This document shows positions 2,936 to 43,307 of a DNA stretch of 64,000 bases, piece after piece. The first letter of the stretch is position 1, and the number at the start of each line of letters is the position of its first letter. A program made the translations under genes and the position numbers. A model generated the notes under the pieces. That model was not told the DNA's origin. It made no database searches and saw only the letters and a program-made list of their open reading frames with translations. Source of the DNA: a virus; the IMG/VR virus record IMGVR_UViG_3300016665_000824, positions 32,001-96,000 of that record, one strand, 5' to 3'.

Positions 2936-2951
2936 AATTCAGATCTGAATT
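2936..2951. repeat. Perfect 16-bp palindrome AATTCAGATCTGAATT filling the intergenic gap before an ATG
   Basis: Member of ATTCAGATC[TG]GAAT family, also at 28783-28798, 36955-36969, 43314-43329, 53273-53290. Confidence 0.6.
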
Positions 2952-4403
2952 TTAATAATTCCAGTCAAGGGATTCGTAAACCAGAGTCATCGACTCGATC
3001 AGCTTCTCCGCGCCGACAAAGTATTCCTTCCCAGACGGCGTAGCGCCAATCAGGTAACAGTTTCTCAGTGTCGCGCCAAGCAAGCTAATTGTTCTCACTG
3101 CGGGGGTAGATCCTTTTGACAGGGCGGTGCGAGATGCGTTAGCTAGCGATCGCCATGCAATCACATCACTCGCTTTAACCCCTGACAACCCCAATGTTAC
3201 TGATTGGCGAGCGAGGGCTACCTGTGTTTGCACTCCATTGCGATTAAGGAGGATCTGTGAGTTATCGGCATCGGCAAAAGAGATCGAATCAACCTCATAG
3301 CCATCGAAGAAGTTTGCTGCGCCCGCACCCGTTTGATCGTAAGACCAATATTTGCTGATAAATTCAAGCTGGGTTGATGCTCGTATTTCCCGCCCGCTTA
3401 CGGTTACGGTTTCTGAAGGAGTGACATTAGTAAGAATTGCCGAGGGGATTGTGTAGCCAGCAACAGTTAACGAGATGACTTCAGGATTAAGAGCATCGGC
3501 AACATTTTCGACCTTGTGGATATAGTTGACTGCATATTCTGCGGGTGTGCCAATTACCGAGAAGGATATCCGCCGCTTAAAGGTTGGGACTTCGCGACGA
3601 CCCGAACCTGCTTGGTTAATTACAAATATCTTTGTATCAGCGCCAACATTAATATTCGCGATCGGGTAGCCATCGAAAGTCCCCTGAGAGAATGGGACAT
3701 CATAATTTCGAGTTTCATATTCAAGCACCAGTGCATCACTAATTTTGCCCAGCCCCGTAGTAATCGAAGCGGTCGGTGTTACTGATGTCAGTACTGCATT
3801 ACTTAAAGTAATACCGCCAATAGTAATGTCTTCAGTTAGTGGCGCAAGCAGGTCTGTATTCAGTAAGTTTAAAAATTTCTGATAGTCGGCTGGTGAAGTA
3901 CCTTTCAGGGTAATCGTCACCTTGCGGCGCTTAACTACGGCAGTACGAACTATGCCTGCATCGGCATACTGGACGCTAATCGAATCACCATCACCGAACT
4001 GAACCCCGTCTAACTCGACCGTATAACCTTTAAAGTGGTCGAAGGCTACACCATGCGTCCAAGTATTACTTTCGTAGAGCAGTCTTAAAGTCTCAACTAT
4101 TTGAGCTTCACCTACCTGCAAAATACCCGTTATTTCTGCGGAGACAAGGCGACATCCCGACAAACTGCGTCCACCATAGGAGATACTGTCACGGAGATCA
4201 GATCCTGCTTCTGCTGCGGACTGATAGTAAAGAACGTCGGCATCTGAGACCCCAGTAATGGTTATCCCGATGTTTGGGCGATAAGCCTTGAATTTTTGGA
4301 GCGTAGACCCGTCCTGCTTGGTGAATTCCCTAGACTCCGCCTCGCCAAACTGAATACCATCTGGCGCGATCGCAAATCCATCAAATTGTAAAAGCGAAAT
4401 CAT
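2952..4403 (-). CDS. Putative tail/baseplate structural protein
   Basis: 483-aa ORF, beta-rich composition, first large gene after tape-measure-like gene. Confidence 0.5.
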   Translation of the reverse strand: MISLLQFDGFAIAPDGIQFGEAESREFTKQDGSTLQKFKAYRPNIGITITGVSDADVLYYQSAAEAGSDLRDSISYGGRSLSGCRLVSAEITGILQVGEAQIVETLRLLYESNTWTHGVAFDHFKGYTVELDGVQFGDGDSISVQYADAGIVRTAVVKRRKVTITLKGTSPADYQKFLNLLNTDLLAPLTEDITIGGITLSNAVLTSVTPTASITTGLGKISDALVLEYETRNYDVPFSQGTFDGYPIANINVGADTKIFVINQAGSGRREVPTFKRRISFSVIGTPAEYAVNYIHKVENVADALNPEVISLTVAGYTIPSAILTNVTPSETVTVSGREIRASTQLEFISKYWSYDQTGAGAANFFDGYEVDSISFADADNSQILLNRNGVQTQVALARQSVTLGLSGVKASDVIAWRSLANASRTALSKGSTPAVRTISLLGATLRNCYLIGATPSGKEYFVGAEKLIESMTLVYESLDWNY

Positions 4404-5321: not shown

Positions 5322-5352
5322 GGTAACAAGGACTTGAGTCCTTGTTACCTTA
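5319..5352. terminator. Strong hairpin (15-bp stem, 4-nt loop) spanning the stop codons of two convergent genes
   Basis: TAAGGTAACAAGGAC-TTGA-GTCCTTGTTACCTTA; no flanking U-tract. Confidence 0.45.
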
Positions 5353-8300
5353 CTCCGCTAGTAACACCCGCTACTCGTCTCAAGACATTATTAAGCGTGT
5401 CATTAACAGCCTTCTGGACATCATTGCCCACACCCGCCGCAGAACTAATGTTGCTTTGAGTATTGATAGCGATCGGGGCATTAACCGTAATATTTCCACT
5501 TGTACCCAGAGCCGCACCCGTAGGATTGCCCTGTTGCTGAGGAACAAGATCTTTACCGCCAAGACTACCGAAAGCCTGCGCCAATGCCTCCGCTCTTTGA
5601 AGTTGTCCTTCGTCAAGCAAGGCGATCGGCTTGTCGAGTTTCTTCTGGGCTTCCTCAAATGCCTTGTCGTCGATCTTCAATGTCACGGGGTTCTCGGAGA
5701 TTTGCTTCGACACACGGTTAAATTCCGCTTCCAGTCCTGCGGTTAAATCTTTAACCTTGAGATCTGGGGCAACCAACACCTTGGAGAAGCCTTCATCGAT
5801 TTGCTGAGTTAACTTGTCGAACGAAGACGCGATCGCCTGTTCTGGCTTTGCTTCCTCCGTAGGTTTGCCACCGTACTTAGCGTTAAGCTCCTCAAACGAG
5901 TTGGCTTGAGCAGGATACTTCTTGTTAAGCTCCTCAAAGCTGCCTGCCATGCCCTTGTCGGGATATTTCTTGGCTAACTCCTCAAAGCTAGTAGCGAACG
6001 GTGCGTTATCAGGCTTTGGTTCGGGTGCAGCCGTAAATACTCCGCCCTGCTCAACCTGCCCAAGCAATGCCGAGGTGGGGTTCTTAAACGAAGCACCGCG
6101 AACATTAACAGGTTGGCTTGCCGCAGCCACAGCATTACTTACATCCGTGGTAGTCAATGCTGCTGTACCCGTATTTTGAGTTAAGCGAGCAAGCTGCTCT
6201 CGTTGTAGGCGCTCTTGCAGCGCAGGATCTCTAGTTGCGCCAATAACATCGCCGATCGCCGTATTAGTTTCGCCTTGCTGTTTATTGGCAAGAGCTTGAC
6301 GATCATTCTTGTTGACAATCTCGTTAACCTTGGCTTCGTCGGCAATGAAACCCTTTTCTTGCTGCAATCCACCCAATTCAAGAAAGTTCTTCTCCTGTCC
6401 AAGCTTGGCTTGAGCAAGTTTAAGCTTCGCCTCTTCGGACTGGGGACGTAGTTTAACCTCCAACTCGGCGGCTTTGATAGCAGCATCCTGTGAGGCAATG
6501 TCCACCTTCTTCTTGGCGATCGCGATTTCATTTTCGACCTTCTTGCGTTCAAGCAATAGGTCACGCTTCTGGATTTCCCGCTCCAAGGACTCGGCTTCAA
6601 ACTTTTGCTGTTGCTTGAGGGAATTAAGCTTAAGAACGGCAAGTTTTTCCGCAAGAATCAGCTTTTTCTCTTCGAGTTCGAGATCGGCAAAGTTGCCCTG
6701 ACCACCTGCGGCACGGATGGCAGCTTGTTGGCGATCGTAGATCTTGTTGAGAGCAGCAAACTCTGACTCGCGTAATGCCACTGTAGACTGGGCAAGTTTA
6801 TTTGCCGACTCGGATAGGCGGCTTTGATTCTCAAGCCCCTTTTCTAGTGCGGTGAATAATAGTTTTTGACGTTCAAGCTTGAGGTTTTGCTGCTCAATCG
6901 TGACCGCATACTTTTGTGATTCCAAGACTAGGCGATCGCGCACTGCGGAAACTAATCCTTCAATCGCCGCGAGTTCGGCTTCAGCGAGCTGTTTGGATAG
7001 TTCAGCAACCTTGATTAGATTAGCGTTCTTAGTTTCCTTGCTAACACCAACGCCCTTCTTCTCAAGATCGGCGATCGCCTTCTGCTTTTGTTGTTCGAGT
7101 TGCAGCTCTAAAGTGATACTGCGTTTACGTTCGGCAGTTTCTTGAAGCTTAATTTCAGATTCAAGCTTAATTCCCGACTTGCGGAGTTGAGCTATCTGAG
7201 CAAGACGCTGAGTCTCGCCAACCTTTTCGGCGGCAAGGGTCTCCTTAATCTGTGCATCCAATCCCTTAACAAAGCGCTCGGAACGGGCTTTGGCTATTTT
7301 TGCCTCAGCGTCCTTCCGTTTGTTGTCGGCATCCTCTTCTAATCGCGCTTTCTGGGCGGCGGTAGCCTTAACTAGATCAAGCTCTTTTTTGTTTGCGTCA
7401 GCAATAGAGTTTTTCGCCAAGTTTTGACGTTCGGCATCTGGCTTTGCGATTGAGGAAAGTTGATCCCTCTTTGTCTGCAACGTCCGAAGTTCAGACTCTT
7501 TCTTGGCGATCGCGTCCTGTTCCGCCTTGATCTGTGCGGTGTACTCCGAGGAATTAAAAAATGGCGCGTCTTTTACGGTGTTGAATCGCTGTAATGTCTC
7601 CGCATTCCCAGCTTTCAGACTAGACAAGGCTTTTTCCCCATCTTCAATCTGCTTCGTAATTCCCTCTAGCTGTCCCTGAGTATCCTCTGACAACTTTAAG
7701 GTGCTATCCAAGGTTCCTTTCTGGCTCTGGAGGCTATTAAGTCTTGATTGCAACACAGCAAGCTCGTCCGTTACTTTCTTAACGTCCTCGGCAGCGTTAT
7801 CTCCCGCAACACCCGTACTTATAGACTCTTGGAGAGCCTTCTTCCTTGCCTCTGCATCTTTGATCTGTTGACTGGTATCGTCGATCTTTCCTTGCAAGAC
7901 AGGAGCTTGAGCTTCCCTGACCTGCCGTATCTTTGAAGGATCTCCAGTTGCAGCAGCTAACTGCGCTTCCGCCAACTCGCGATCGCGCTTAATCTGTTGT
8001 TTCTGCTCATTAGCGTTGGTCTCCAAGATCTGCTGTCTTGCTCTTAGAGCCTTTTGATCGGCTTCAGACTGGGCTTGAATCTTCTTCTCCTCTAATTGTC
8101 CAGAGAGGGCGATCGATTCAGACTCAGAGATTCGCCCCGTGGCGAGCAAAGCTTGAATCTGGGAAAGTTGAGCGTCATAAATAGCTATGCGGCGATCCGC
8201 CTCCTTTTTGTACGCGGCAGTAATCGCTTCTTGAGCCTTTATCTGTAAATCGCGATCGGCAGAGACATTCGTAGCTACTTTTTGAAACGCTCCCGCAACT

Positions 8301-11300
8301 TCGTCTGCACGGAGAATCCCTGCATCTTGAAGGGCGTTAGCCGTTTCAAGCAACTCGCCCAACTTCGCCTTAAATAGCGCAGGATCTCCCGCAGACTTGT
8401 TTAAAGCGTCAAGGGCTGCATTATATTTTGAAGTTGCCTGCTCGATCGCATTACCAATACGAGGAAGATCAATAGCCTGAATTTGCAGGTTTACCGACTT
8501 GTAGGATTCTTGAAGTTTTCTAAGGGCTTCAAGTTCTCGATCTCTTTCTGCGTCTAAACCTTCTACAGCTTGAACCTGATTAATGATTGCCTCGATATTG
8601 TTGTTTCTTTCGGCGATCTCCTTCTTCTTATTCTCGATCTGAATATCAAAACGCGCAGCACCATCTTTGTCGCTTAGCGCTTCCGCCTTGGACTTTTCCT
8701 GCTCTAATTTAATTAAATCCTCTTGGAGTTTCTTCTGAGCAGACAGTCCTATTCCTAGATCAACCCGCCGAGAAGCTGACTGATTTAAGACGTTTTTATT
8801 ATCTTGCAATCTTATTTGGACGGCTTTCTCTTCAAGATTTCCTGCGCGATCGCCTAGACCTAACTTGTCGGAAGCGCCAAACGTTACCGTTCTTAGCCCC
8901 TCTCTTGCCGCGTCACCTGTAAGAGCAAAACCTTCTGTAACGCGAGTACCAATATTGTCTCTCTCTTTTTTAACCTTCTCCCTCAACGCGTCTTCGGAGT
9001 TGGTTGGTTTGCTTTGTAATCCCCTCAACTCTTTGAGTTTTGCGAGCTGTTGATCATACAGCTTTAAAGTGGGGTCATCTTGGAGGATGCTCTTGTCTTG
9101 GATTGAGGCAACATATTTTTCGCGTTCTGAGGTTAGGTTTGCTAGCTCAGAAGCGGCATCCTTTCCTTGCGATTTGTTTAGGATCGCAACCCTTGCGTCA
9201 CTATCTTTGAGCGCATCGTTGAGTTTGTCTACATTGGCTGTAGCTGCTTTTGTTTCCTGATCGACGTAGCCAACCAAGGTTGTTATTGCGGCGAAAGCTG
9301 CGCTTAACAATAATGTAGGACCAATTTCTGCGGCGAGGGCGGCGAAGGATTTGCTGATACCTTTGACATTCTCGGAAATAAACGAGGTAGCGCCTACAGC
9401 ACCCTTTTTGAGGTTTGAATAAAGTCCACCGACACTAACGTTCGCGTTTTGAGTGAAATCAGCAAAGCTAGACTTAGCTCGCGAGCCAAAATCTTTGACA
9501 CCAGAAAGAGCATCTTGGAAACCTGTCTTTAACCCAGCACCTAAATTTTTGAGGCTTAAATCGGGGAGAGAAATAGACTTGACTTGATTGACAAACTTAT
9601 CTATAGCGATACGAGAATTAGCCAAAGAAGCGGGAATATTTAGCTCTCTAAAGAACTTATCGAGTCCCAGTCTCGCGTTTGCAAGAGAGGTAGGGACGTT
9701 GATCTGGGAAAATGCTTTTTCAACCCCGTTGCGGAGGTTTACCAGCGAGGCAGGAATGTTGATATTTGCAAAGGCGTTCCGAATGCTAGCTTTAGTATTC
9801 TCAATTTGCGCGGGGAGATTTGCAAAGATACCAGTTTTTTGACTCGAATCCTGACTGAACCTTCCCTTAATGTCAGATATAAAACTACCAATAGAGTCGC
9901 CCAAGGACTTCAAAGAAGTTTTTGTCTTTGTGGCGATCGCTCCAATATCTTCTGCGAACTGTTTTGTGAACGGGACGGGAATTGGATTGGCAATAATCTG
10001 ACTTCGGAGCGACTTGATTCTGTCGGTAGTCTCCTGATAACTTTTAAGAGCCGCCGCACGAGCTTCGGGGGTTAACGACAGATCTGTAGAGTCTTTTTGG
10101 CTCACGATCGCCTGCTGTTTTAGTCCAGAGACCTCTCGTTTAGCGGCGACAACCTGAGTAGGATTTAGAGTCGTTGACTGAACTGGCTTGCCCCCAAGTA
10201 TTTCTCGAACACTATCGTTTAGCTTCTTGATGCGCCCAAAGGTTTCGCCAATACTGGCTCCAGCACCGCTAATTCCCGTGTTAATTGTCTTAAATACATT
10301 GGAGATTGTGCCACCAAACAGCTTGGTAACAGCGATCGCGATTAGCAATCCGCCAACTACTTTTTGAAAAGGATTGGAGTTCTCGCCAAAAGTAAAGAAC
10401 GGCAATATCGTGTCTGCAACCACCTTAATTACTGGTGCTAATACCGACCCTACCGTATCCGCAAACTTACGAATAGCTGCGGTTACATCCTGAATGATTT
10501 TTTGTAGACCTTTGTTCTTCAGGATTAACTGATCGAAGAAGACAAAACCAACAAATGTTCCAGCACCCAACAAGGCTGTTGATACGGCAAAAGACCTTGC
10601 CGCAGCTCCTGCCGCTTTTAATGAATTAGAGAAGATGCTGTTTACTTTCTCGGTATTTGTAGCGACATCGGCAAACTTGCCCAAGCTCTTGGCTGCGTCC
10701 GCAATCAACGGGCTAAACGAGCCAAATAGTTGGGACTTACCAACAATGCCTGAGAAAGCTGTTAAGGCGATCGGCGCTGCCTTCGTAAATCCTTGCAGTG
10801 CGGTTCCTAGCGCAGGAAATGCTTGAGTAAGTCCAATCAGTTTTACCCCAAAGCCACCTAGTGTTGGCAAAGCGGCAGTTATAACTCCCGCGAATGGCGA
10901 GAACGCACCGAGAACTTTGCCCAACTCTTTTTGGACTAAGCCAGCAGCACCAGGGATCTTGTTTAGATTCTCCGCCAACAACAGGAATCCAGCAGACCCT
11001 CGACCGACAACCGAACTTAAATTAGCAAAAGTGTTGACAACCCCGTTAGTACGCTTGTCAAGCAGGAAGAGAACTTCTCCCAAACCTGGTACAAGATTAA
11101 ACATCAACGAGAAGCCTTTGTTTAATGCCCCGATCGCGCCCGAAAGAACTTTTGCGCCGACGGAGATGCCGATCCAAATCCCTCCAAGAGGACCTACAAC
11201 ACCTGCAATTTGTTCAAACACATTAATAGCTGGCTGAACAACAGCAAGAGTAAGGCTCATCGCATCGGAAAAAGCCTTTACTGCGCCAGCGAGAGACTTG

Positions 11301-13780
11301 AATAGGTATTCTGGAACCTGCCCAAAGATCTGGAAGAATGGCCCCGCGAGACTTTTTAGGGTCGCAATCACGTTCTTGAATACGTCAAACAGTATTCCTG
11401 CGAGACTCCCTACTTGAGCAGCGATCGCGTCTTTATTCTTTGAGAAATACTGGTAAAACCCGTCAAGTTCCGCTACTAAAGGTGCGAGGAATTTCTCCCC
11501 AGCGAGTCTGCCGATCTCATCAACTAGCTCTTGAATATTGCTAACAATCCCACCCACGGACTGAGCAGCTAGCTTGTTTCCAGACTTAAATGCTTCTAAT
11601 CGACCTAAAAGCTCTTTGACGAAGGTTCCTTGAGACTTCCACTTAGCCACCATCTCATTGTTGAGGTTAAGCGATTTGGCAAGAGCTGAGTTTTGGTCAA
11701 TAGTTCCCGAAGTTATACTAACAACCTCTTGACGGGCTTGATATAAAGGTATGCCAAGCGTTCCGAGTGCGGCGGCGAACGAGGTTGTAATATTAGCAGC
11801 GTCATTCAAGGACGCGCCAATGTTGCTTGCCTGCCCAGCAACGATCTGAAAAACCCCGACAAGATCTTTACTGGTTACGCCGACCAGCTCTAACGAGTCT
11901 TTACGAATTTTATCGATCGCCCCTTCAACCGCAGGGCCAACCGCCTTGATCGCTTGAGTTGGATCTGATACGCGATCGCCATTAACTACGATTCTATTGG
12001 TTGCCGCTAAGCTCGCCTGAGTAGAGAGTAGTTGCTCTTGGAGCCTGATGTTTTGCCCAATCAACAGATCGAAAGGGCCGTTTTGTACAAATCCTTGGAG
12101 TGCCTGCAATCCCAATCCCAAGAAAGCAAGTCTCTGAGATACTTCAAAGATCGCGTTGGTTGCCTTGCCAGCACCTTCGCTAATTAGATTGAATACTTCT
12201 AGTGGTTCCGTCGCCCCCGCCACTGGAGCAACCACTGCGGCGGCAATATCTACAGGTTCTTGCAGCTTCGGGGCTATCTCTTGAGTCTTTTGAAACCCCT
12301 TAACGATAACATCATCAACACTATCGATGACAGTACCGACTTCGGCAAGGATTGTTGATCTCAGTCCATCAACAAAATTCTTACCTGCGATCGCGCCAGT
12401 ATCTTTTAAAAGCGAACTAAATGTTCCGCCAAAAAACTCGTCAATCTTGGTTGCAAGTTTTTGCAGTGAGCCATCCCCGCTTCCGATAGAATCAATCGCC
12501 GCGCCCAACCCTCCGTCAATAGCATCGACAGCTTTTAGGGCTAAATTCCTGAGAGGCGCAAGGATGCTAGTATCTTCTACGCTAAACAAGCTATTGAGAG
12601 CCTGTCCAACGCCTCCCTTTTGAGTCTCTATTAAAGGGCGGAGGATGGCAAAAGCGGATCTTAAATCCTCTGGAATTGCTTTTTCTAGTCCATTAAATAA
12701 CTGTCCAGACAACGCATTTCCAAAATCTTGCAACTCATTAGAGGCAACAATCGACCCCAAATTTGCCACCCCGATCTTGTTGGCAATCAGTTTTGCTAGT
12801 GGTGGTAGTGGCAACTTATCTACAAGCTGAGGGATTCGCCCCGCTAGGCGGTTGATCAGCTCAGATACAGAGCCGCCTAACTGTTCGTCAAGAATTTTAA
12901 ATTGATCGGTCGCCTCAGATCTGCTGCCGACGATTGCCCTGCCGACCGATCCTCCTAAAGCGCTAGATAAGCGCCCTACAACTCTTTGTCCGTCCTCAAC
13001 GTTTGGCGCGATTGCGTTAACGGCAAAAGCTTTAGCAGCACCCGATACCGACCCACCAGCCAACTGCTTCGACACTTCCGACAGCAATCCAGTTTTTGCC
13101 GCAGTCCGAAATGAGTTGGCGACAATTGAGGTTAAATCCGCCCCGAAAGCTTGGTTAACAATACCTTTTAAAGCGTCGGGGAGTCCTCCCCCAACAACGC
13201 CCGAAATGAGTGAGTCGGCGATCGCGTTATCTAGCGTTCCAGTAAAAGCCTCAACTCCCACTCCAAGCTTGCGCTGAATTTCTTGATTTAGCTTTGAAGC
13301 CCTAACATTTGCTTCTAACGCTTTACCGAAACTGTTTGCAGAATCGCTAAGTATCTGCGTAATTCTCTTGCCGTTATCCGAAAATATTGCAGACTGAGCT
13401 TGCTCTGCCGACTGCTTAGATAAGAATCCTCCTCCGACATCTTTTCCTGCAGAGGTAATCCCCTTGATTACCTTTGAGAGCGGAGCTAGTTTTGAAACTG
13501 CACTGTCGGCGACATTCGAGATCTGTTCTAAAAATATTTTGCCCGACTGCGTATCTAGTACATCTCGAACCGACTGAATTGCGTCTCTCAGCCCTCCAAA
13601 CGTGCCAATCGCGGTTGCCCCTACCGTGCTGATCGTTCCGCCAAGGGCTTGTACAGATCCCTTTGTTACGTCCGCAACAACACCAACACTTTTTAGACCA
13701 GCAGCTATCTCCGAAACTTGTTTGCTTGCTTGATCTTTCGCCTGTATTAAGATCTCAACAATATTGGTTTGCGGAGCCAT
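5345..13780 (-). CDS. Giant virion protein, tape-measure-like (tail length tape measure or ejection/internal virion protein)
   Basis: Uninterrupted 2811-aa ORF; Gly/Ala/Ser-rich hydrophobic N-terminal third, long E/K/Q/A/L-rich coiled-coil centre, internal tandem repeats, position between head and tail-fiber genes. Confidence 0.6.
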   Translation of the reverse strand: MAPQTNIVEILIQAKDQASKQVSEIAAGLKSVGVVADVTKGSVQALGGTISTVGATAIGTFGGLRDAIQSVRDVLDTQSGKIFLEQISNVADSAVSKLAPLSKVIKGITSAGKDVGGGFLSKQSAEQAQSAIFSDNGKRITQILSDSANSFGKALEANVRASKLNQEIQRKLGVGVEAFTGTLDNAIADSLISGVVGGGLPDALKGIVNQAFGADLTSIVANSFRTAAKTGLLSEVSKQLAGGSVSGAAKAFAVNAIAPNVEDGQRVVGRLSSALGGSVGRAIVGSRSEATDQFKILDEQLGGSVSELINRLAGRIPQLVDKLPLPPLAKLIANKIGVANLGSIVASNELQDFGNALSGQLFNGLEKAIPEDLRSAFAILRPLIETQKGGVGQALNSLFSVEDTSILAPLRNLALKAVDAIDGGLGAAIDSIGSGDGSLQKLATKIDEFFGGTFSSLLKDTGAIAGKNFVDGLRSTILAEVGTVIDSVDDVIVKGFQKTQEIAPKLQEPVDIAAAVVAPVAGATEPLEVFNLISEGAGKATNAIFEVSQRLAFLGLGLQALQGFVQNGPFDLLIGQNIRLQEQLLSTQASLAATNRIVVNGDRVSDPTQAIKAVGPAVEGAIDKIRKDSLELVGVTSKDLVGVFQIVAGQASNIGASLNDAANITTSFAAALGTLGIPLYQARQEVVSITSGTIDQNSALAKSLNLNNEMVAKWKSQGTFVKELLGRLEAFKSGNKLAAQSVGGIVSNIQELVDEIGRLAGEKFLAPLVAELDGFYQYFSKNKDAIAAQVGSLAGILFDVFKNVIATLKSLAGPFFQIFGQVPEYLFKSLAGAVKAFSDAMSLTLAVVQPAINVFEQIAGVVGPLGGIWIGISVGAKVLSGAIGALNKGFSLMFNLVPGLGEVLFLLDKRTNGVVNTFANLSSVVGRGSAGFLLLAENLNKIPGAAGLVQKELGKVLGAFSPFAGVITAALPTLGGFGVKLIGLTQAFPALGTALQGFTKAAPIALTAFSGIVGKSQLFGSFSPLIADAAKSLGKFADVATNTEKVNSIFSNSLKAAGAAARSFAVSTALLGAGTFVGFVFFDQLILKNKGLQKIIQDVTAAIRKFADTVGSVLAPVIKVVADTILPFFTFGENSNPFQKVVGGLLIAIAVTKLFGGTISNVFKTINTGISGAGASIGETFGRIKKLNDSVREILGGKPVQSTTLNPTQVVAAKREVSGLKQQAIVSQKDSTDLSLTPEARAAALKSYQETTDRIKSLRSQIIANPIPVPFTKQFAEDIGAIATKTKTSLKSLGDSIGSFISDIKGRFSQDSSQKTGIFANLPAQIENTKASIRNAFANINIPASLVNLRNGVEKAFSQINVPTSLANARLGLDKFFRELNIPASLANSRIAIDKFVNQVKSISLPDLSLKNLGAGLKTGFQDALSGVKDFGSRAKSSFADFTQNANVSVGGLYSNLKKGAVGATSFISENVKGISKSFAALAAEIGPTLLLSAAFAAITTLVGYVDQETKAATANVDKLNDALKDSDARVAILNKSQGKDAASELANLTSEREKYVASIQDKSILQDDPTLKLYDQQLAKLKELRGLQSKPTNSEDALREKVKKERDNIGTRVTEGFALTGDAAREGLRTVTFGASDKLGLGDRAGNLEEKAVQIRLQDNKNVLNQSASRRVDLGIGLSAQKKLQEDLIKLEQEKSKAEALSDKDGAARFDIQIENKKKEIAERNNNIEAIINQVQAVEGLDAERDRELEALRKLQESYKSVNLQIQAIDLPRIGNAIEQATSKYNAALDALNKSAGDPALFKAKLGELLETANALQDAGILRADEVAGAFQKVATNVSADRDLQIKAQEAITAAYKKEADRRIAIYDAQLSQIQALLATGRISESESIALSGQLEEKKIQAQSEADQKALRARQQILETNANEQKQQIKRDRELAEAQLAAATGDPSKIRQVREAQAPVLQGKIDDTSQQIKDAEARKKALQESISTGVAGDNAAEDVKKVTDELAVLQSRLNSLQSQKGTLDSTLKLSEDTQGQLEGITKQIEDGEKALSSLKAGNAETLQRFNTVKDAPFFNSSEYTAQIKAEQDAIAKKESELRTLQTKRDQLSSIAKPDAERQNLAKNSIADANKKELDLVKATAAQKARLEEDADNKRKDAEAKIAKARSERFVKGLDAQIKETLAAEKVGETQRLAQIAQLRKSGIKLESEIKLQETAERKRSITLELQLEQQKQKAIADLEKKGVGVSKETKNANLIKVAELSKQLAEAELAAIEGLVSAVRDRLVLESQKYAVTIEQQNLKLERQKLLFTALEKGLENQSRLSESANKLAQSTVALRESEFAALNKIYDRQQAAIRAAGGQGNFADLELEEKKLILAEKLAVLKLNSLKQQQKFEAESLEREIQKRDLLLERKKVENEIAIAKKKVDIASQDAAIKAAELEVKLRPQSEEAKLKLAQAKLGQEKNFLELGGLQQEKGFIADEAKVNEIVNKNDRQALANKQQGETNTAIGDVIGATRDPALQERLQREQLARLTQNTGTAALTTTDVSNAVAAASQPVNVRGASFKNPTSALLGQVEQGGVFTAAPEPKPDNAPFATSFEELAKKYPDKGMAGSFEELNKKYPAQANSFEELNAKYGGKPTEEAKPEQAIASSFDKLTQQIDEGFSKVLVAPDLKVKDLTAGLEAEFNRVSKQISENPVTLKIDDKAFEEAQKKLDKPIALLDEGQLQRAEALAQAFGSLGGKDLVPQQQGNPTGAALGTSGNITVNAPIAINTQSNISSAAGVGNDVQKAVNDTLNNVLRRVAGVTSGVR
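5872..6000 (-). repeat. Three imperfect tandem ~42-48-bp repeats near the 3' end of the giant ORF
   Basis: Encodes SFEELAKKYP / SFEELNKKYP / SFEELNAKYG. Confidence 0.65.
9581..9820 (-). repeat. Four tandem 60-bp (20-aa) repeats inside the giant ORF
   Basis: Encodes NIPASLVNLRNGVEKAFSQI / NVPTSLANARLGLDKFFREL / NIPASLANSRIAIDKFVNQV / NLPAQIENTKASIRNAFANI. Confidence 0.7.
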
Positions 13781-18468: not shown

Positions 18469-21083
18469 TGGCTTTGCTTCCTCGCTTTACGGCGTTGAGT
18501 TAATGTTGCATTGAGTTTTTTGGCGATCGCGTCAGCAGCATTTACCGACAGGTAATCCACTGCGCTGCCGTTAGTTCCTGAGAAGCTATCGGGGTTTTTG
18601 CCCTTGAATGGAGTTCGACTCCAGAGATCGCCGTCCGACCACAGATCGGTCTTTGGAGTTTTTAGCAGATCTGTATCTACTTTTTTCTTATCTACCTTCT
18701 CTCCCCCAAAACCCAGCTCAGGAGTTCCCAAAGTAACAAGGTGAATTTGTTTAGCAATATAAGTCCCAGCAACATTTCCTTGCGAACCTGTTTTTTGCAT
18801 TGACTCCAAGATGTCCAAAGCCCTTTTTGCTGTTTCTCCACCTTGCTTTAGCCCAATAACAGAAATAGCTGGGTATTCAGTTGAGCTTCCCTCGTATGAG
18901 CTGTTTCCGATAGCGTAAAGTTCCGCAGCCAACTTTACAGCTTCAGGGTCTCGTCCCGCTTTGAGGGTCTTACTCATCACGGCTTCGTAGCTTCTTGCCA
19001 TAGTGTCAATAACACCCATAACCCTGCCCCTAGACTGAGGCGGGAGGGTTCGATCAAAAGAAACCACGTCGCTTTGATCGTAGAAGTCTTTCTCTGCTTG
19101 AGACTGAAGCTTTGATCCGTTACTTTTAATTGATTTGCCCAGAACATCGCTAGGAGTTTCTCCATCTCCTATTGCGATAATGACGCTGGGATTTATTGGG
19201 GTAGGCAAAGTCGTTCGTCCACTTGCTACAATCTCTTGAGCCTCAAGAGCAGACTTCGCTATATTGTTGTTGTATTTAACCCTCGCAGCCACAGCAGCAG
19301 TCACCGTTACTTGACCAAGTACGGCTACAGTATTAATCGCTGCTGCTGTGGGATTGTCTTGATATTTATCCTTGATCGCAGAAACCAGATTCCACGTCTT
19401 TCCTAGCGTTGGGTTTACCGCAGTGATCGCCGCCGCTATTTCTTTTGCCCCCTTGTCGCTAGACTTGCTTCCCGCAACAGAATTAGAGAAAAATCCAAAC
19501 GTCTCGCGGATTTTATCTCTGACCGTGCTATCGGTTAAGTAGTCCTCAATCTCATGCCCCTTGACCGAGCTGACAAACTGCGAAAACCTCTTAGGCAGGA
19601 TTGAGAAAGGATCGTTTTTGGAGGTAATAGTGCGGTTGTTAATGTTCGCCCAGTTCTTGTCGTCTTGAGTTGTGCCACCCGTCAAACCGAAGGATGCACC
19701 GCCAAGTCTGGCGATATTGAGGCGCTTCAGAACTTCTCCACCATCAAGCCCCCTAGCAGGCTTGATCCGACTCAAAATTTCGGCAGCTTCATCAACAACG
19801 TTGCCCCCAGAACCGTGACTAACTACGTTCAAAGGCTTGTCACGATACTTAGAGCCATAAGCATACAATTTAGAAGCCAGATCCACCGCAGCTTCGTTTC
19901 TGCCACCGACAATATTGCTTAGATATTTGCCAAAACTTTCTTTAGCTACATACCCCAGATACAAGGGATTGTAGTTCCCGTTTTTATCCTTTGGGAGAAT
20001 ATCGGTTGGAGGAACATTAAACTCCGAATTGTTGAAGGGGATGACCTGCTGGGTCTTGTTAAACCACTGTTCCCGTTTTGAAGTGTCAAGCGGAGTTTTT
20101 AAATATTCAGCGAGCTTATCACCAGAAGAGCCAAGGTTGGAAAATCCTCCTACAGCAAAAGTTAGTTGAGGTTTGGAGGTTGGCTCGACAGGAGTAGTTT
20201 GTGCTCTTTGGTACGCCATTAGCGCCGATTCAGGCAAGCCTTCTTTGTAGCGATCGCGAGCGGTCATCATTACCGATGAGGGAATGCCCAGCAGTACGCT
20301 TGCCGCTAATATGCCTGCCGCAGGGCGATTGTCTCCAAAAAACTTGCTAATCTTTTCGATATCTTTCCATGCGCCAGCAACGGGTTGGGGTAGCAAACTC
20401 TTAAGAGCTTTCTTGCTAGACTCTGCGCGATTCAAGCCTTCACGAACAATCTTCTGGCGATCGGGATTGGCTTTTTGCAGGCGAATTGATTCTCGCAATT
20501 GAGCCTGACTCATATACGAGTAGCGATACACGCCTCGTTTGCGAGCTTCTTCCTTTAATTCCCGAATATTCTTGTTATCAAGATCGTCCTCAACTGGGGC
20601 AACGCCAACAAATTTCGCTTTTTGAACTTGGTTTACCGCATCATTCAGATCGGAAATCTCTTGTCTATTTAAAGCTTCAGGAACGTCAATACGGCAGGTG
20701 TCCGTCTTTGCAATACAAGCGCCTTTGCAGGATAGTCCAACCTTACAGTTCTTGGGCTTAGAAATTTTATCGGTACGTTGACCGATATTGTTTGCATAAG
20801 CAAGTAAGTACTGATCTGCGTCAGTATCTACTGCATCAGTGCGACCATCCTGTACCTGCTTATACTCAATGCGATCTCCTAATTCCAGCCGAATCAGCTT
20901 TTGATCCTTGTCATCATCACGAAACAGACAAGTGATAAGCCCGTCATTACCGATATTGATATTAAGGATCTGATCGATACTCCCGTAGGCGCGAGAAATA
21001 ATGCGAGTTAATAGCCTCGCAATCGTTCTTCTTGCGGCGAGAGGATCTGTGGTTTGAATTGGTGGTGGTGCGATCGCGTACAT
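18465..21083 (-). CDS. Large virion/effector-like protein with possible alpha/beta-hydrolase-like region
   Basis: 872 aa; CKVGLSCKGACIAKTDTC motif; VVSHGSGG (aa 421-428), NDPF (aa 490-493), KGHE (aa 508-511) in the order expected of a Ser-Asp-His hydrolase, not canonical GxSxG. Confidence 0.5.
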   Translation of the reverse strand: MYAIAPPPIQTTDPLAARRTIARLLTRIISRAYGSIDQILNINIGNDGLITCLFRDDDKDQKLIRLELGDRIEYKQVQDGRTDAVDTDADQYLLAYANNIGQRTDKISKPKNCKVGLSCKGACIAKTDTCRIDVPEALNRQEISDLNDAVNQVQKAKFVGVAPVEDDLDNKNIRELKEEARKRGVYRYSYMSQAQLRESIRLQKANPDRQKIVREGLNRAESSKKALKSLLPQPVAGAWKDIEKISKFFGDNRPAAGILAASVLLGIPSSVMMTARDRYKEGLPESALMAYQRAQTTPVEPTSKPQLTFAVGGFSNLGSSGDKLAEYLKTPLDTSKREQWFNKTQQVIPFNNSEFNVPPTDILPKDKNGNYNPLYLGYVAKESFGKYLSNIVGGRNEAAVDLASKLYAYGSKYRDKPLNVVSHGSGGNVVDEAAEILSRIKPARGLDGGEVLKRLNIARLGGASFGLTGGTTQDDKNWANINNRTITSKNDPFSILPKRFSQFVSSVKGHEIEDYLTDSTVRDKIRETFGFFSNSVAGSKSSDKGAKEIAAAITAVNPTLGKTWNLVSAIKDKYQDNPTAAAINTVAVLGQVTVTAAVAARVKYNNNIAKSALEAQEIVASGRTTLPTPINPSVIIAIGDGETPSDVLGKSIKSNGSKLQSQAEKDFYDQSDVVSFDRTLPPQSRGRVMGVIDTMARSYEAVMSKTLKAGRDPEAVKLAAELYAIGNSSYEGSSTEYPAISVIGLKQGGETAKRALDILESMQKTGSQGNVAGTYIAKQIHLVTLGTPELGFGGEKVDKKKVDTDLLKTPKTDLWSDGDLWSRTPFKGKNPDSFSGTNGSAVDYLSVNAADAIAKKLNATLTQRRKARKQSQ

Positions 21084-22875: not shown

Positions 22876-22968
22876 ATCGCTATTGTTTGATGCTCACAAG
22901 CAAACAGGCGATCGCTTGATGAATTAGCGATCGCCTGTTAGATCTCCTTGTACACATGGCACATGAGG

Positions 22969-24467: not shown

Positions 24468-24528
24468 AATTCAATAGATATAAAAATATCGAGCGCAGGT
24501 ATTCCCACGCTCGATATTGGCGATCGCC

Positions 24529-26336: not shown

Positions 26337-27827
26337 CTATTTTCTAGTGGAACGAGCTAAGGGTTTGGAGTAGTTCTTGCCGTAGCGCTCGTTATTGCGT
26401 TCTGCGGCATCCTTCTTCTCCTCGGAATCTTTACGCTCAGTGCGACCAACCTTTACGGCGGTCTCTAGGCGATCTGCGTAGCTAGGCGCAGGAACAAGAG
26501 TTGCGTACTCAGCCGCGCTATCGAAACGGGCTTCGATGTAGCTATCGTTGCGATCGCTTAAATCAACTTCAGGATGAATAGCCTTCAGTGCAGCGCGACG
26601 AATCTCGGTGGAGTCCATCGTGGTTTCGATACCTGCATCCTCGATGTTGATACCCTTAGAGGTAAGAAGGTCGTGAGCCTTGCCAATTGCATCGAGGCGA
26701 TCGGCAGTCTGGCGATTGATTTCTTCAGCGAGGAATTCACGGACTTCATCGGAGTCAAGAACGACTGCCAACTCAGAAGAGTCCATCTTCTTGCCCTTCT
26801 TCATCTTTTTCTTGATGAAGTCAGGCATCTTGCTTTCACCCTCGGATTCCTCATCGTCAGGCTCGCCTTCGCCGTCTTCCTTGTCACCACAAGAAGCATC
26901 CTGACGGATAGTTTCGAGTTGAGTTAGGGTTTCGGTTAGCTCATCTTCAAGAGCGTCAGCACGACCCTTGGTGCGATTAACTTCGGAAGTAAGGTCGGCG
27001 ATCGCGTCAGCCTTCTCTTTGAGTTCAGCCTCAAGAGAATCCACGCGAGACTTATATTTAGATAGTTCTTCGAGTTTTTGCGACAGGGGGTAGAGCGCGA
27101 TGTCCTCCACCTGAAACTCGCCAGCGCCATCCACGCGCAATGTTTTTGTTTTCAAATCGGACATAGCGGAGCTACCCTCATTTTTAATTGTTGGAATAAC
27201 GACAACGCTGTTCGGAGCAGAGGCTTTAACTTGGATCGAGTCAAAGCGAACTAGCTCAACAACCTCATCCCCATCGGCATCGGCACTATCGAGGTGCATC
27301 CTCACAGTGCTCCCCCCGCGTGGGTTGTCAGTTGCGGCGCAATGGTCTGGTCGAATCTTGGTTTGAACACGGTCAAAATCGCCCCGATAGGTGATCTGGT
27401 CGATCGCGTCGAACCATTCGCCATTCGGGGCTTCTACGATTTCGCATTCATATCCAAGAGAAAGACCGTTCTTTTTGCCTGCCTTTACGGACTGGGCAAA
27501 ATCGGGGTTAGAGATTCGGGCAATATTCTGTACAACCCCCTCGTTATCGTTGTACTCACCCGCCCTTGTTAATTCACCAACAGCGCTATCTCGTTTTCCC
27601 CGCAATAGCGAAGATGGATGCTCGACAGTCATCGGCAATCCTTTTAGGGACTCAAGGAAATCGCGATCGCGGTTTGCCGAAGCAGGTCGCAATTCACGAA
27701 CTCGCTTTCCGTCACCTCGAAAGTATGTCAATATGCCGTCTCGACAAACCGTGCTGTACGCATACAGCCCGTCCGCACGTTCTTCAGTGCGGGTCGCGAA
27801 ACTTACGTCATCAAAACGAAATGCCAT
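26337..27827 (-). CDS. Putative head maturation protease/scaffolding protein
   Basis: 496 aa; globular N-terminal half, coiled-coil and strongly acidic C-terminal half typical of scaffold; precedes capsid genes. Confidence 0.45.
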   Translation of the reverse strand: MAFRFDDVSFATRTEERADGLYAYSTVCRDGILTYFRGDGKRVRELRPASANRDRDFLESLKGLPMTVEHPSSLLRGKRDSAVGELTRAGEYNDNEGVVQNIARISNPDFAQSVKAGKKNGLSLGYECEIVEAPNGEWFDAIDQITYRGDFDRVQTKIRPDHCAATDNPRGGSTVRMHLDSADADGDEVVELVRFDSIQVKASAPNSVVVIPTIKNEGSSAMSDLKTKTLRVDGAGEFQVEDIALYPLSQKLEELSKYKSRVDSLEAELKEKADAIADLTSEVNRTKGRADALEDELTETLTQLETIRQDASCGDKEDGEGEPDDEESEGESKMPDFIKKKMKKGKKMDSSELAVVLDSDEVREFLAEEINRQTADRLDAIGKAHDLLTSKGINIEDAGIETTMDSTEIRRAALKAIHPEVDLSDRNDSYIEARFDSAAEYATLVPAPSYADRLETAVKVGRTERKDSEEKKDAAERNNERYGKNYSKPLARSTRK

Positions 27828-27932
27828 TGGCTAATTCAACTTAGGTCAATGGCATTACTTTCTTGTTTTGTCAAGATGAATATTCGGTTTTATGGAAATT
27901 AGCGATCGCTTTTCTTTAAATACGCTCAATAC

Positions 27933-27990: not shown

Positions 27991-28554
27991 TTGAATATGG
28001 CAGTAAAAAGTAAAGTCAAGCTCGGCGCGTATATCGGGCGAAGGCTGGAGCAGGAACGTACCGATGCCGATTACGGTCAGCAAGAAGTCATTAATGAGAT
28101 CCACAGAATAACGTCATCCCCAGAAGTTATTGCTGCGCTAGAGATATCTGTCGCCGCAAACCTAACCAAGTTTCGAGAGTTTCGAGGCAAACGCCAGAAA
28201 GATTTAGCCGCAGATCTAAACAACTTGCGCGATACCTTGCATGGCGTAGGTATAGATACTGAAGTGTCTGGCGATGTGTCTTGGATGTCTAAGGTTGAGA
28301 ATAGCGATCGCATCATGCAGGCGGTCGAACTACGACTCTTTAGCCTTGCTTTGGGTGTTCCGATGGAGGCATTTTTCCCTAATGAGTTAAACGTACTAGC
28401 AGAAAGTAATGACCCGTTCGCCCCTTACCGATATCTGGGACGCAGTATCGAGGGTATTCAAAAGTATCGACATGTCAGCGATCGCAACAAAATTGCGATC
28501 GTTTATTGTTCAGAAGGGTTGTCTTTACCTGATGGTGTGGGGAAATATCTATGA
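27991..28554 (+). CDS. Hypothetical protein, first gene of accessory island
   Basis: 187-aa ORF; CCACAAA direct-repeat element ~40 nt upstream; ATGA overlap with next gene. Confidence 0.5.
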   Translation: MNMAVKSKVKLGAYIGRRLEQERTDADYGQQEVINEIHRITSSPEVIAALEISVAANLTKFREFRGKRQKDLAADLNNLRDTLHGVGIDTEVSGDVSWMSKVENSDRIMQAVELRLFSLALGVPMEAFFPNELNVLAESNDPFAPYRYLGRSIEGIQKYRHVSDRNKIAIVYCSEGLSLPDGVGKYL

Positions 28555-28784
28555 GTGTTTATTCAAGCCCCGAATTCACTGGTACAATCATTCGAGAAAG
28601 CCATGAGAGTGGCGTTTTGCTAGTCACGGTCGTAGAGTTACCAGGGCTAGTCTTAGTGCTCAACTCCCATAGCGAAGAAGAAATCGTATTGCCCCAAGCT
28701 ATTAGATCGTATCTAAGTCTTGAGGAGCAATTGAAGATTAAGCGATCGCGACCCAAAGTCACAGCAGTAAAAATATCCATCTAA
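28551..28784 (+). CDS. Small protein with HicB-like (UPF0150-type) features
   Basis: 77 aa; VTVVELPGLV resembles the PELPGC motif of HicB-type antitoxins (from memory). Confidence 0.35.
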   Translation: MSVYSSPEFTGTIIRESHESGVLLVTVVELPGLVLVLNSHSEEEIVLPQAIRSYLSLEEQLKIKRSRPKVTAVKISI

Positions 28785-28812
28785 TTCCGATCTGAATCAC
28801 CACGAAGAAATC

Positions 28813-30786
28813 ATGTCCTATGAAGCCCTGCCGTCGGGAAGCTTAGTCAAAGCTCCCATCGATCTGATCGAAACTCATCCACAGAACCCCGCCCCTACAT
28901 CACAGAGGTATAGCGAAATATTGGGGTATCCCGTCAGGGTTGAGGATGCTCAGGTCGAGTCCCTGATTGAACTACTAAGGGCGGAGGGCTACAACCCCAA
29001 TAAGCCTATGCTGCTCAGACCAGTTGGCGATCGCCTCCAAGCCGTTGAGGGCAACCACCGTTTTGTGGCAATGTGGATGCTCACCAAGGTACTCAGAGAG
29101 TTTGAACAGGACTATATTCCCGCGATCGTGGATGAAGATCTATCCGAAGAGGACGCTCTGATTAAGTTGAGTACTCTTAATACTCAGCGCAGGATGGAGG
29201 GTTGGCGGTTAGCTCGATTGGCTTACTACACTTGCGTTGAGAAAGGCATGTCTCAGCCTGAGTATGCGGCAAAGGTGGGATACGTCCTTGAGGGTGGAAA
29301 GCCAAATGGTCCACGGATTTCTAAGTTGATTCAAGCCTGTCGATTTGTTGACTATATTGCTGCCAACTCACCGATTGAAGAACTGCAAGACGTTGAGGCT
29401 TTAACCGAACCTAAGAACGGTTTGTTTAGGTCAGTTGATCGCGTCGTTGAGTTTATGTACCTCGACCAAGAGGACTGGTTATGGATTGCAGAGTTCTACC
29501 TCCGTCATCACATGCAGATCTCGGCAAAACAACGAGTCAACCTAGCCAAGGCGATCAAAGATACAAAGGATTTGCTCAACAGATCTACCTCGTATCCCGA
29601 TCGCTGGAGTCAATGGTTGCGCTGGGAGTATATACGCGGAGAGGTCGCTAGTCAGTGTGCGGCAAACGAGGAGTCCCAATTAGCCAAGAGTTTATTACCC
29701 CAACTAATTTCTGAGGCGAATAAAACCTACGAGTCGGACGACTTGCCATTCATTCACAACTATCACGAAGTTACTGGTAACAGGGTTGAAGAGAAAACTG
29801 CCAATCTCAAGGAGGAATTTCGTGCTGAGTTAATCAAGCAGATCGAAGGGCGTAGTGCCAAGTTTTACAGGCTTGTTGATGTTGCTGAAGCTGCGCGGAC
29901 TGTGATCGATCGCTATGCGTTTATCGATCAGAAGTACGAAAACTTCAAAAAGATCGAAAACACGGTACATATCGAGCAAGAGATTGTTGCGATCGCACCT
30001 CCGACGACCTCAAAGTCAAAATCTACGCCAACAACATCTACGCGATCGCCTGTTGCAGAAACAAAGCCCAAGCTTGATACCGAAAAGCGAGTGTGGATTG
30101 AGGAACAATATCAGCCAAAAGGCATGGTTTCTTCTCTAGAAGATTATGCTTTCCACGGCGGCAAACAGTACGGGCTGATATTCTCCCGTCTTGGCAATAG
30201 CGGCATGGAGGACTTCTTTCAAAATACCGACTATATCTATAGAACGCTTACCGAAGATGGAGTATTCGCACTGATATTGCCGCATAAATATTCCTTCGCG
30301 GTAATTGAGGAGCTTGAGTATAAGGTAGCTAACTCTAGTCGCTTACACCTTCGAGGGTTGGATGGCGGCATATATTCCGATGATGAAAAGCCGAGATTGG
30401 CGATCGCCGCATCAAACCGTACATTGATTCATCAAGAGTACGAAGAATTATTATTGTTCACCACTCAAGACGATACTCCTCTGCCATTGCGATCGCCTCT
30501 CCCTCGGATGGCGCTGGAGCCAGTTCACGATATTCTGACCGCTTTTGGCGACCTGAGCGAGCCGTTCTTAGATCCGTTCGCCTTCAGTGGTGAGGTCGTA
30601 GTCGCAGCAAAAAGTCTTGGGTATCGGTGCGACTATCTCGTACAGACTCCAAACCAGTTGGACTTGGTTACGCGCTGGTGCGATCGGACTGAGTTTCCTG
30701 AGAGTCTACTTAGATTTGCGGAAGAGTTTACTCATTTTGATGAGGCACTGTTTAGTGATCGAGCAACTACTCGTGCAAGATCCTGA
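28813..30786 (+). CDS. ParB-like nuclease domain protein with degenerate methyltransferase-like C-terminus
   Basis: 657 aa; N-terminal LLRPVGDRLQAVEGNHRFVAMW fits ParB/Srx fold; C-terminal LDPFAFSGEVVVAAKSLGYRCDYL aligns to MTase motif I (DPFxGSGTT) with glycines replaced; no DPPY motif. Confidence 0.55.
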   Translation: MSYEALPSGSLVKAPIDLIETHPQNPAPTSQRYSEILGYPVRVEDAQVESLIELLRAEGYNPNKPMLLRPVGDRLQAVEGNHRFVAMWMLTKVLREFEQDYIPAIVDEDLSEEDALIKLSTLNTQRRMEGWRLARLAYYTCVEKGMSQPEYAAKVGYVLEGGKPNGPRISKLIQACRFVDYIAANSPIEELQDVEALTEPKNGLFRSVDRVVEFMYLDQEDWLWIAEFYLRHHMQISAKQRVNLAKAIKDTKDLLNRSTSYPDRWSQWLRWEYIRGEVASQCAANEESQLAKSLLPQLISEANKTYESDDLPFIHNYHEVTGNRVEEKTANLKEEFRAELIKQIEGRSAKFYRLVDVAEAARTVIDRYAFIDQKYENFKKIENTVHIEQEIVAIAPPTTSKSKSTPTTSTRSPVAETKPKLDTEKRVWIEEQYQPKGMVSSLEDYAFHGGKQYGLIFSRLGNSGMEDFFQNTDYIYRTLTEDGVFALILPHKYSFAVIEELEYKVANSSRLHLRGLDGGIYSDDEKPRLAIAASNRTLIHQEYEELLLFTTQDDTPLPLRSPLPRMALEPVHDILTAFGDLSEPFLDPFAFSGEVVVAAKSLGYRCDYLVQTPNQLDLVTRWCDRTEFPESLLRFAEEFTHFDEALFSDRATTRARS

Positions 30787-36953: not shown

Positions 36954-37039
36954 GATTTAGATCTGAATACGTTGTCCGATAATAAGCGATCGCCAATTCA
37001 GCTTCATTTAAAATCTCCGAAGGCGCGATCGCTAAGATT

Positions 37040-43208: not shown

Positions 43209-43257
43209 ATTCAGTGGCGATCGCGTATGTCCATCTGACAGGCGATCGCCACTGAAT
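43209..43257 (-). promoter_or_regulatory. 16-bp-stem hairpin directly upstream of the portal-like gene start codon
   Basis: ATTCAGTGGCGATCGC...GCGATCGCCACTGAAT ending 1 nt from ATG at 43208. Confidence 0.45.
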
Positions 43258-43281
43258 CAGGAGTATTTGCTAAAAAAGCAA

Positions 43282-43307
43282 AACAGGACTGCGTTGGCAA
43301 TCCTGTT
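43282..43307 (-). terminator. Intrinsic terminator, minus strand
   Basis: 11-bp stem (one G-U) with CAAC loop, then U-rich tract on minus strand; between 43329..44063 and portal-like gene. Confidence 0.55.

Follow-up and report, generated by a model that had tools for sequence, protein, structure and literature searches.

We asked what a short palindrome is doing when it makes up the entire spacer between two genes of a phage. The palindrome (s1, Table 1) runs from the TAA stop (2952–2954, minus strand) of a 483-aa gene to the ATG (2935–2933) of a 283-aa gene in what we refer to as the window, the whole 64-kb stretch of viral DNA that was analyzed. A preliminary description of the window had regarded it as one of a family of palindromes at gene junctions, and had left three options for their role: translational coupling in the place of ribosome-binding sites, RNA processing or a protein-binding site. 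That the palindrome is perfect over 16 bp and is all that precedes the ATG at 2935 can be read directly. The same is true of the near-copy (ATTTAGATCTGAAT, 36955–36968) lying 1 nt from the ATG at 36953 and of the variants reported at stop codons, since 28784–28797 includes the last base of a TAA and 43315–43328 directly follows a TAG. Our analyses favor the third option, as a prediction that fits best, and do not support a stand-in for ribosome-binding sites or an autonomous RNA hairpin.

Exact-protein look-ups placed the window on contig ena:ERZ27292652:k141_20893 (134,398 bp). For both window ends to map consistently, this contig must be circular and overlap itself by 141 bp, which indicates a complete genome of ~134.26 kb and not a prophage within a host chromosome. 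Metagenomes from blooms frequently contain the phage (examples are ERZ27292652 and JGI 3300005805). No close cultured phage was found among 50,697 phage records, either by megablast with the first 20 kb of the window or by tblastn with its primase. Gene orientation changes ~14 times across the window, and 11.7% of its DNA is intergenic. The 2811-aa ORF had no Pfam or PDB sequence match, and the idea that it contains a virion RNA polymerase was dropped as its weak tape-measure match stands alone. The window also contains 139 copies of HIP1, the highly iterated palindromic octamer of cyanobacteria, GCGATCGC (~1 per 460 bp) compared to an expectation of 1.3, a very high density of a host-type iterated palindrome for a free circular 134-kb phage genome.

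Table 1. Window coordinates of the palindrome sites and of the genes and terminator referred to in the text.
Feature	Position	Strand	Remarks
s1, AATTCAGATCTGAATT	2936–2951	−	Perfect 16-bp palindrome; fills the spacer between two genes
2811-aa ORF	5345–13780	−	Weak tape-measure PHROG match, residues 16–493
s2, TTTCCGATCTGAAT on sense strand	20643–20656	−	Inside 872-aa gene; encodes (I)SDLN
Head maturation protease	26337–27827	−	
187-aa XRE-like HTH protein	27991–28554	+	Alternative candidate binder; weak HTH_31 match, E = 0.055
77-aa ORF	28551–28784	+	Stop overlaps s3; no family match
s3, ATTCCGATCTGAAT + CACC tail	28784–28801	+	18-mer copy 1
657-aa ParB/Noc-fold protein	28813–30786	+	Candidate binder; gene follows s3
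s4, ATTTAGATCTGAAT (plus strand)	36955–36968	−	In 86-bp divergent region
Portal gene	41553–43208	−	
Intrinsic terminator	43279–43310	−	14-bp stem + U-tract; directly after s5, upstream of portal gene
s5	43311–43328	−	18-mer copy 2 (motif 43315–43328); after TAG stop 43329–43331 of 263-aa gene
DnaG primase	52875–54632	−	
s6	53272–53289	−	18-mer copy 3 (motif from 53276); inside DnaG primase gene; encodes VFRSESP
DnaB helicase			Gene in window

A search of both strands of the whole window for the pattern ATTCAGATC[T/G]GAAT (ATTC[A/C]GATC[T/G]GAAT) with up to two mismatches identified six sites (2937, 20643, 28784, 36955, 43315 and 53276). These correspond to 12 strand-matches, compared to 1.25 ± 1.33 in 100 shuffled sequences, the largest count in any of which was 5. 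An unbiased k-mer count gave the same result by a different route, ATTCCGATCTGAATCACC being the sole 16- or 18-mer to occur three times in the window, with exact copies at s3, s5 and s6. The family first described is real and biased to junctions, but its sixth site, within the 872-aa gene, had been missed. Similarly, the 18-mer had been correctly placed at 43311–43328 and in the primase gene, although its coordinates in the latter are 53272–53289 and not 53273–53290, and its third exact copy (28784–28801) had gone unnoticed. Elsewhere in the window the half-site GATCTGAAT is present just one more time, at 8636, and a degenerate copy at 4767 (TGAATCACC) was judged to be due to chance. Three further copies were found in the 20 kb of the same genome fetched past the ends of the window (L089:11267, L089:12008 and L090:19993), giving a copy number of ~9 in 84 kb, or a density of ~1 per 9 kb.

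The element has a 14-bp core with two-fold symmetry (ATTCAGATCTGAAT), ATTC[A/C]GATCTGAAT, often followed by (C/T)ACC. In an alignment of 18 instances, positions 2–4 and 11–13 are invariant or nearly so, and the center is AGATCT, CGATCT or AGATCG but never CGATCG. On the sense strand the consensus is [A/T]TT[C/T]N-GATCTGAAT, with a nearly invariant right half and a looser left half, to which most deviations from symmetry belong (~11 versus 3). A tail, CACC(AC) after s3, s5 and s6 and TACCAC after both L089 sites, is present on the 3′ side alone, with no mirror copy 5′ of the motif. Like HIP1, the element is palindromic with a GATC center and is repeated in the same phage genome; however, HIP1 is a ubiquitous 8-mer, mostly coding and shared with the host, whereas the phage motif is a junction-biased 14-mer with TTC/GAA arms. 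A HIP1 variant was ruled out, as arms and copy number differ, the center is never CGATCG and the HIP1 copies are separate. Since the center is GATC, it is of interest that the phage genome encodes DNA methyltransferases: a Dam-type (D12) adenine methyltransferase next to a DUF4326 protein (window 49897–51418) and a C5 cytosine methyltransferase just outside the window (L089:13543–14487).

Four of the six window sites are intergenic (P = 0.002 given the intergenic share of the DNA), and every site whose orientation can be read runs in the same direction as the local gene. Site s3 shares its first A with the TAA stop of the 77-aa ORF, as the final base of that codon, and s4 lies beside the start of a 191-aa gene. 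The terminator that follows s5 folds at −22.7 kcal/mol (z = −5.9) and has compensatory changes in its stem in one related lineage, designated C. Each of the two L089 sites precedes a small gene, at exactly 15 nt from its ATG, and the leader, TACCACAAAAGCACA, is identical in both, although the core at L089:12008 has two mismatches. L090:19993 overlaps a TAA stop and is followed by a bidirectional terminator that separates two convergent genes. With no GC-rich stem and no U-tract of its own, the motif is not an intrinsic terminator, those after s5 and L090:19993 being separate elements.

Relatives of the phage were fetched via four anchor proteins and clusters of the ParB-like protein encoded next to s3. 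The preliminary description had suggested a search of related genomes for the palindrome, and we found the motif at the same places in lineages having 51–95% protein identity, while their intergenic flanks have diverged. The most widely kept is s3, the sole site present in all seven lineages, where it always touches or overlaps the stop codon and is 4–20 nt from the next ATG. In lineage B (L035), the 16-bp s1 spacer is replaced by a non-coding insert of 585 bp (L035:11453–12036) that includes a terminator hairpin. The motif is retained, as ATTCCGATCTGAAT, at the 3′ end of the insert, where 27 nt rather than the 1 nt of s1 separate it from the downstream ATG of the 283-aa gene. Site s2 is kept in lineages B and C with a single synonymous change that is the A/C permitted by the motif, whereas in lineage D it has decayed to TTTCGGATCTGAAC by synonymous changes that leave the peptide EISDLND identical. 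Lineage D (64% identity) has s3 with one mismatch, lacks s4 and s5, and keeps only that one site in the 22 kb available. No second motif family was found in lineage D, and a shift of its motif to GATCTGAAC was considered and dropped, the extra copies simply encoding Asp-Leu-Asn. The conservation across lineages, set against the decay in lineage D, indicates selection at the nucleotide level in the other lineages together with turnover of individual sites. Other differences among these genomes include a small gene in the structural module of relatives with Tad2-like or Acb2/Tad1-like Pfam matches (anti-Thoeris/anti-CBASS sponges; L027:3887–4135 and L036:2647–2967), whose counterpart in the window is a 93-bp spacer (22876–22968) with two HIP1 copies. 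Lineage D also has a PAS-EAL protein, a putative c-di-GMP phosphodiesterase (L036:17873–18901), with no counterpart in the window.

The element is not a repeat acquired from the host. A search of 185,579 bacterial and archaeal species genomes (one for each species) yielded nine scattered single matches to the 18-mer, none of which was cyanobacterial, where by our estimate ~17 would be expected by chance. Its absence from cyanobacterial reference genomes and the unrelated nature of the nine matches rule out a host repeat. The preliminary description had named a common host repeat without positional bias as the finding that would overturn it, and both the host search and the junction bias point the other way. 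In IMG/VR the 18-mer marks only a handful of related HIP1-rich contigs, and a full-text search of the literature for the motif returned cloning primers only. A REP/BIME palindrome was also rejected, as the motif is 14 nt rather than ~20–40 nt, forms no stable hairpin and is absent from bacterial genomes.

These comparisons bear on the idea that the element is a selfish or neutral micro-repeat, or a recombination linker at module boundaries, that has no regulatory role and spread from s3 together with its CACC tail. The three 18-mers are identical beyond the palindrome, and both L089 sites (exact over 28 nt) and L090:19993 have the additional flanking bases CACAAAAGC in common, which suggests copying. 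In addition, gene content differs beside two of the sites, s1 in lineage B and s5 in lineage C. Nevertheless, the core has been kept at the same places amid diverging flanks, including at synonymous positions of s2 and s6, there are no transposase-like ends or target duplications, and known MITE and REP types are longer than the element. We consider a neutral origin very improbable. In sum, this is a genuine motif family that is specific to the phage lineage, is maintained by selection, favors gene junctions and follows the direction of transcription.

Can such an element act in RNA? The suggestion that it takes the place of ribosome-binding sites is not supported, since a Shine-Dalgarno-like sequence precedes only 14 of the 57 window genes, and with its absence being normal in this phage a replacement by the motif would be nothing special. 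Nor is there the fixed tie to the start codon that the first sites had implied: the distance from motif to ATG varies from 1 to 27 nt, both between sites and between relatives at one site, s5 and L090:19993 precede terminators, and two sites are intragenic. The rare use of Shine-Dalgarno sequences and the variable spacing both weaken this option. RNA folding of the junctions, which had been proposed as a check, was equally unfavorable to a hairpin, with the perfect palindrome at −0.9 kcal/mol and the commonest variant, whose C at position 5 breaks a base pair, at 0. Among the 18 instances there were no compensatory pairs and most variation disrupts pairing, 83% of cells being paired compared to 84.6% in shuffles, and no Rfam family matched at its gathering threshold. 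An autonomous RNA hairpin is ruled out by the negligible folding energy and the lack of covariation.

An RNA-level operator, in which a phage protein would recognize a 4-bp AUUC/GAAU stem with an NGAUCU loop, sometimes next to a CA-rich leader, and so control translation initiation, mRNA processing or stability, is a different matter. Because the element always points with gene transcription, a role in RNA together with a bound protein is favored on this count, and the right half is almost invariant on the sense strand. Five of the nine genome sites end 1–15 nt before an ATG, three of them (s3 among these) with a CA-rich leader of exactly 15 nt, and four are in contact with the stop codon before them, so that a ribosome terminating there would cover the site. 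Furthermore, TGAAT heads the list of 5-mers enriched within 25 nt upstream of starts (11 of 89 genes, 2.2 expected), outranking Shine-Dalgarno 5-mers (examples are at 43209–43213, 24468–24474 and 27834–27839). Four of these 11 occurrences come from motif sites and some others lie within GGTGA-type Shine-Dalgarno variants; the enrichment may be regarded as a lead toward an RNA-level role. The portal gene has CTGAAT directly against its ATG. A strictly co-oriented, though different, motif in the distant relative L041 (seven of seven copies, see below) also agrees with this reading. Opposed to it are the folding energies, the pair-breaking variation and the unconserved spacing described above, the two sites before terminators and the two inside genes, and the lack of an Rfam match or of an identified RNA-binding protein. 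The closest precedents, the lambda nut/boxB hairpins and T4 RegA-type operators, are likewise short interrupted palindromes co-oriented with transcription that are placed between a stop codon and a terminator, or immediately 5′ of a start codon. However, boxB has a stable GC stem whereas the phage stem would have four A/U-rich pairs at ~0 kcal/mol and no covariation, the phage motif has many more copies, and no N-like or RegA-like protein was identified. We consider an RNA-level operator unlikely, although it is the most probable of the rival readings.

The same positions and orientations could be those of a phage-specific promoter, read by an RNA polymerase or sigma-like factor that the phage encodes or modifies, and producing transcripts with very short or leaderless 5′ ends. 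Consistent with this, the sites are co-oriented, mostly intergenic and directly upstream of starts, they are conserved within the clade but replaced by another oriented motif in L041, and ~1 site per 9 kb would suit a single class of promoters. On the other hand, s5 and L090:19993 would fire into terminators, the latter also facing convergent genes, and two-fold symmetry is unexpected of promoters. A −10 element of the sigma-70 type, with its essential A in second place, is lacking, the sites are spread over early-type and structural modules alike, and no RNA polymerase or sigma gene was detected among the genes with family matches in the ~84 kb covered. This makes a promoter class improbable. 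Sigma-70 promoters at every site were also rejected, since only s4 coincides with a −35/−10 match at 16–18 bp spacing. Site s4 overlaps a −35-like TTTAGA on the plus strand that is spaced by 16 nt from GATAAT (promoter-like match 36956–36983), and is just downstream of a minus-strand −10-like TATTAT (36984–36979) that is conserved as TACTAT in lineage C and TATGAT in lineage D. These promoter-like elements are consensus matches only, from a scan that gave fewer matches than shuffled sequence. The AT-rich hexamer region at 36978–36984 is −10-like on both strands (GATAAT on the plus, TATTAT on the minus), an arrangement that suggests a pair of putative back-to-back divergent promoters sharing s4.

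The gene adjoining s3 provides a candidate for a protein that would bind the site. On its own, the 657-aa product falls below Pfam thresholds. Among PDB sequences it is best matched by Spo0J/ParB (1vz0, E = 0.002), in an alignment that spans the GxxR box and the HTH. A HMMER search with it returned just 25 representatives among 1.84 billion proteins, and of 27 aligned homologs 22 match PF02195 (ParB_N) and 10 match PF01555 (N6_N4_Mtase). An AlphaFold2 model with a mean pLDDT of 83 was used for Foldseek searches, in which the N-terminus matched ParB-parS and Noc-NBS structures and the C-terminus matched beta-class adenine/cytosine-N4 methyltransferases such as M1.HpyAVI, CcrM and M.BceJIV. In this protein the catalytic DPPY is now SRLGN and the SAM-binding FxGxG is now FAFSGE, whereas active relatives keep both. 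Together these results identify it as a DNA binder of the ParB/Noc type that is fused to a methyltransferase fold, the latter probably dead, and thus as a probable pseudo-enzyme. Fusions of ParB-fold proteins with N6/N4 methyltransferases rank among the most frequent ParB fusions of phages, yet neither a function nor a DNA site is known for any of them (PMC12704722). The ParB-like gene is the last of a three-gene cassette that begins with the XRE-like gene and has the 77-aa ORF between them, an order conserved down to the L041 clade. Homing-endonuclease genes are present just 3′ of the ParB-like gene in two relatives (LAGLIDADG, L039:6930–7829; HNH, L041:11052–11474).

ParB-fold proteins read 14–16-bp palindromes, such as parS (TGTTTCACGTGAAACA) and NBS (ATTTCCCGGGAAAT), that are scattered through genomes and frequently intragenic, one of them being close to parB. 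The phage core has the length and symmetry of such sites. It is conceivable that the ParB-like protein loads at centromere or condensation sites of the parS type for segregation or compaction, for instance of a plasmid prophage, without a direct role in expression. The scatter of the palindromes through the genome and the presence of one beside the ParB-fold gene in every lineage are in keeping with that. Yet the parS and NBS sequences differ from the phage motif, as do the box II of the protein (GNHR, not GERR) and its C-terminal domain, where a dead methyltransferase fold occupies the place of the dimerization domain of a true ParB. No ParA/CbiA was found in the proteins scanned or in precomputed Pfam matches (84 kb of the genome), the orientation and junction bias would not be expected of parS, and lineage D keeps only one site. 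A segregation role thus appears quite improbable.

Two systems in which dispersed sites control transcription are closer in their logic. The OB sites of the IncP plasmid RK2 are short palindromes scattered both at and far from promoters, and their reader KorB, an HTH protein with a ParB fold, loads and slides so as to silence transcription globally (PMC11790492). The phage resembles this arrangement in its scattered short palindromes and in the ParB/Noc-fold gene beside the universally conserved site, for whose product binding is predicted. However, the OB core TTTAGCGGCTAAA is unrelated in sequence to the phage motif, the dead methyltransferase fold stands in place of the KorB C-terminus, no KorA-like partner is known for the phage, and the phage sites are orientation-biased. 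The stoperators of cluster A mycobacteriophages (L5 gp71 type) are present in many copies at promoters and in short intergenic spaces, with an orientation that strikingly correlates with the direction of transcription (PMC9283540; PMC6550527). The phage motif is similar in having many intergenic or promoter (s4) copies that are oriented with transcription. The two differ in that stoperators are asymmetric 13-bp sites bound by a monomer, whereas the phage core is two-fold symmetric. They also differ in density, the L5 genome being roughly 50 kb and having about one stoperator every 2 kb, while the phage motif is sparser at ~1 per 9 kb. More than twenty stoperators occur in L5 (PMC9283540). The genes examined included neither an L5-type repressor nor an integrase. 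Stoperator-like logic would favor a temperate phage. The element belongs to no described family, although a dispersed phage regulatory repeat is a familiar kind of thing.

The reading that we favor, with a probability of about 0.4, is that the element is a dispersed operator read on double-stranded DNA by a phage HTH protein, in the manner of KorB OB sites or stoperators. From the evidence above we infer all three parts of it, namely the binding of the site by a protein, the identity of that protein and an effect on transcription. The leading candidate is the ParB/Noc-fold pseudo-methyltransferase, whose gene starts 4–20 nt past the universally kept s3, and the second is the XRE-like protein of the same operon. 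Whichever it is, the protein would probably bind as a dimer and thereby control transcription. At the divergent promoter region s4 would be an ordinary operator, since it overlaps the rightward −35-like hexamer and would lie a few bases into the leftward transcript; at intra-operon junctions and before terminators the sites might instead be roadblocks or loading sites for a sliding clamp, much as OB sites serve KorB on RK2 and stoperators serve the L5-type repressor. In favor of a DNA operator we counted the real two-fold symmetry of the family, with s1 a perfect palindrome, the evidence against a host repeat, the conservation of the motif amid diverging flanks, which indicates purifying selection, and the negligible RNA hairpin without covariation. 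Also counted in its favor were the adjacency of s3 to the ParB/Noc-fold gene in every lineage, the overlap of s4 with promoter-like elements on both strands, and the junction bias and co-orientation, which match stoperator behavior. Counted against it were the left-half deviations and the 3′ CACC tail, as a symmetric dimer site should ignore orientation, together with the sub-threshold Pfam score of the candidate, the ParA that was not found among the genes examined, the promoter scan that gave fewer matches than shuffled sequence and the different oriented motif of L041.

The last of these points deserves consideration, as L041 has the same gene order and an equivalent XRE/76-aa/ParB-like cassette, whose ParB-like protein is 30% identical to that of the phage. 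Its dispersed motif, CCCCTCAACCCCGAAGTCAC, is non-palindromic and is present in seven copies in 20 kb (L041:1998–17346), all of them co-oriented with genes. One copy is in the equivalent spacer between the 76-aa and ParB-like genes, and another is arranged in the order stop codon, motif, terminator. Two of the copies are intragenic and have inverted arms, GTGAC...GTCAC, around them. That oriented repeats are found at these positions in both clades supports a directional role tied to gene expression, while the different and non-palindromic sequence in L041 weakens the idea of a symmetric site for a ParB dimer. A leader upstream of the ParB-like gene, AATCACCAC, is common to both clades; hence, the CACC tail may belong to that leader and not to the palindrome. 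A metagenome scan for more distant cassettes yielded two short L041-like contigs only.

Returning to the dispersed DNA operator, a bolder form of it, which we regard as rather doubtful, would make the ParB/Noc-fold pseudo-methyltransferase a genome-wide regulator that loads at GATC-centered palindromes at gene junctions and brings about orientation-dependent silencing or insulation, a phage counterpart of KorB and the stoperators. As the phage encodes its own Dam, binding might depend on Dam methylation of the central GATC. Should the element act in RNA instead, it would be a translation-control signal in a host group in which most genes are without a Shine-Dalgarno sequence. The element is a concrete, conserved and easily synthesized candidate site for one ParB-methyltransferase fusion, in a version without catalytic motifs, and it provides a testable handle on gene regulation in an uncultured ~134-kb cyanophage lineage, most of whose genes are unannotated.
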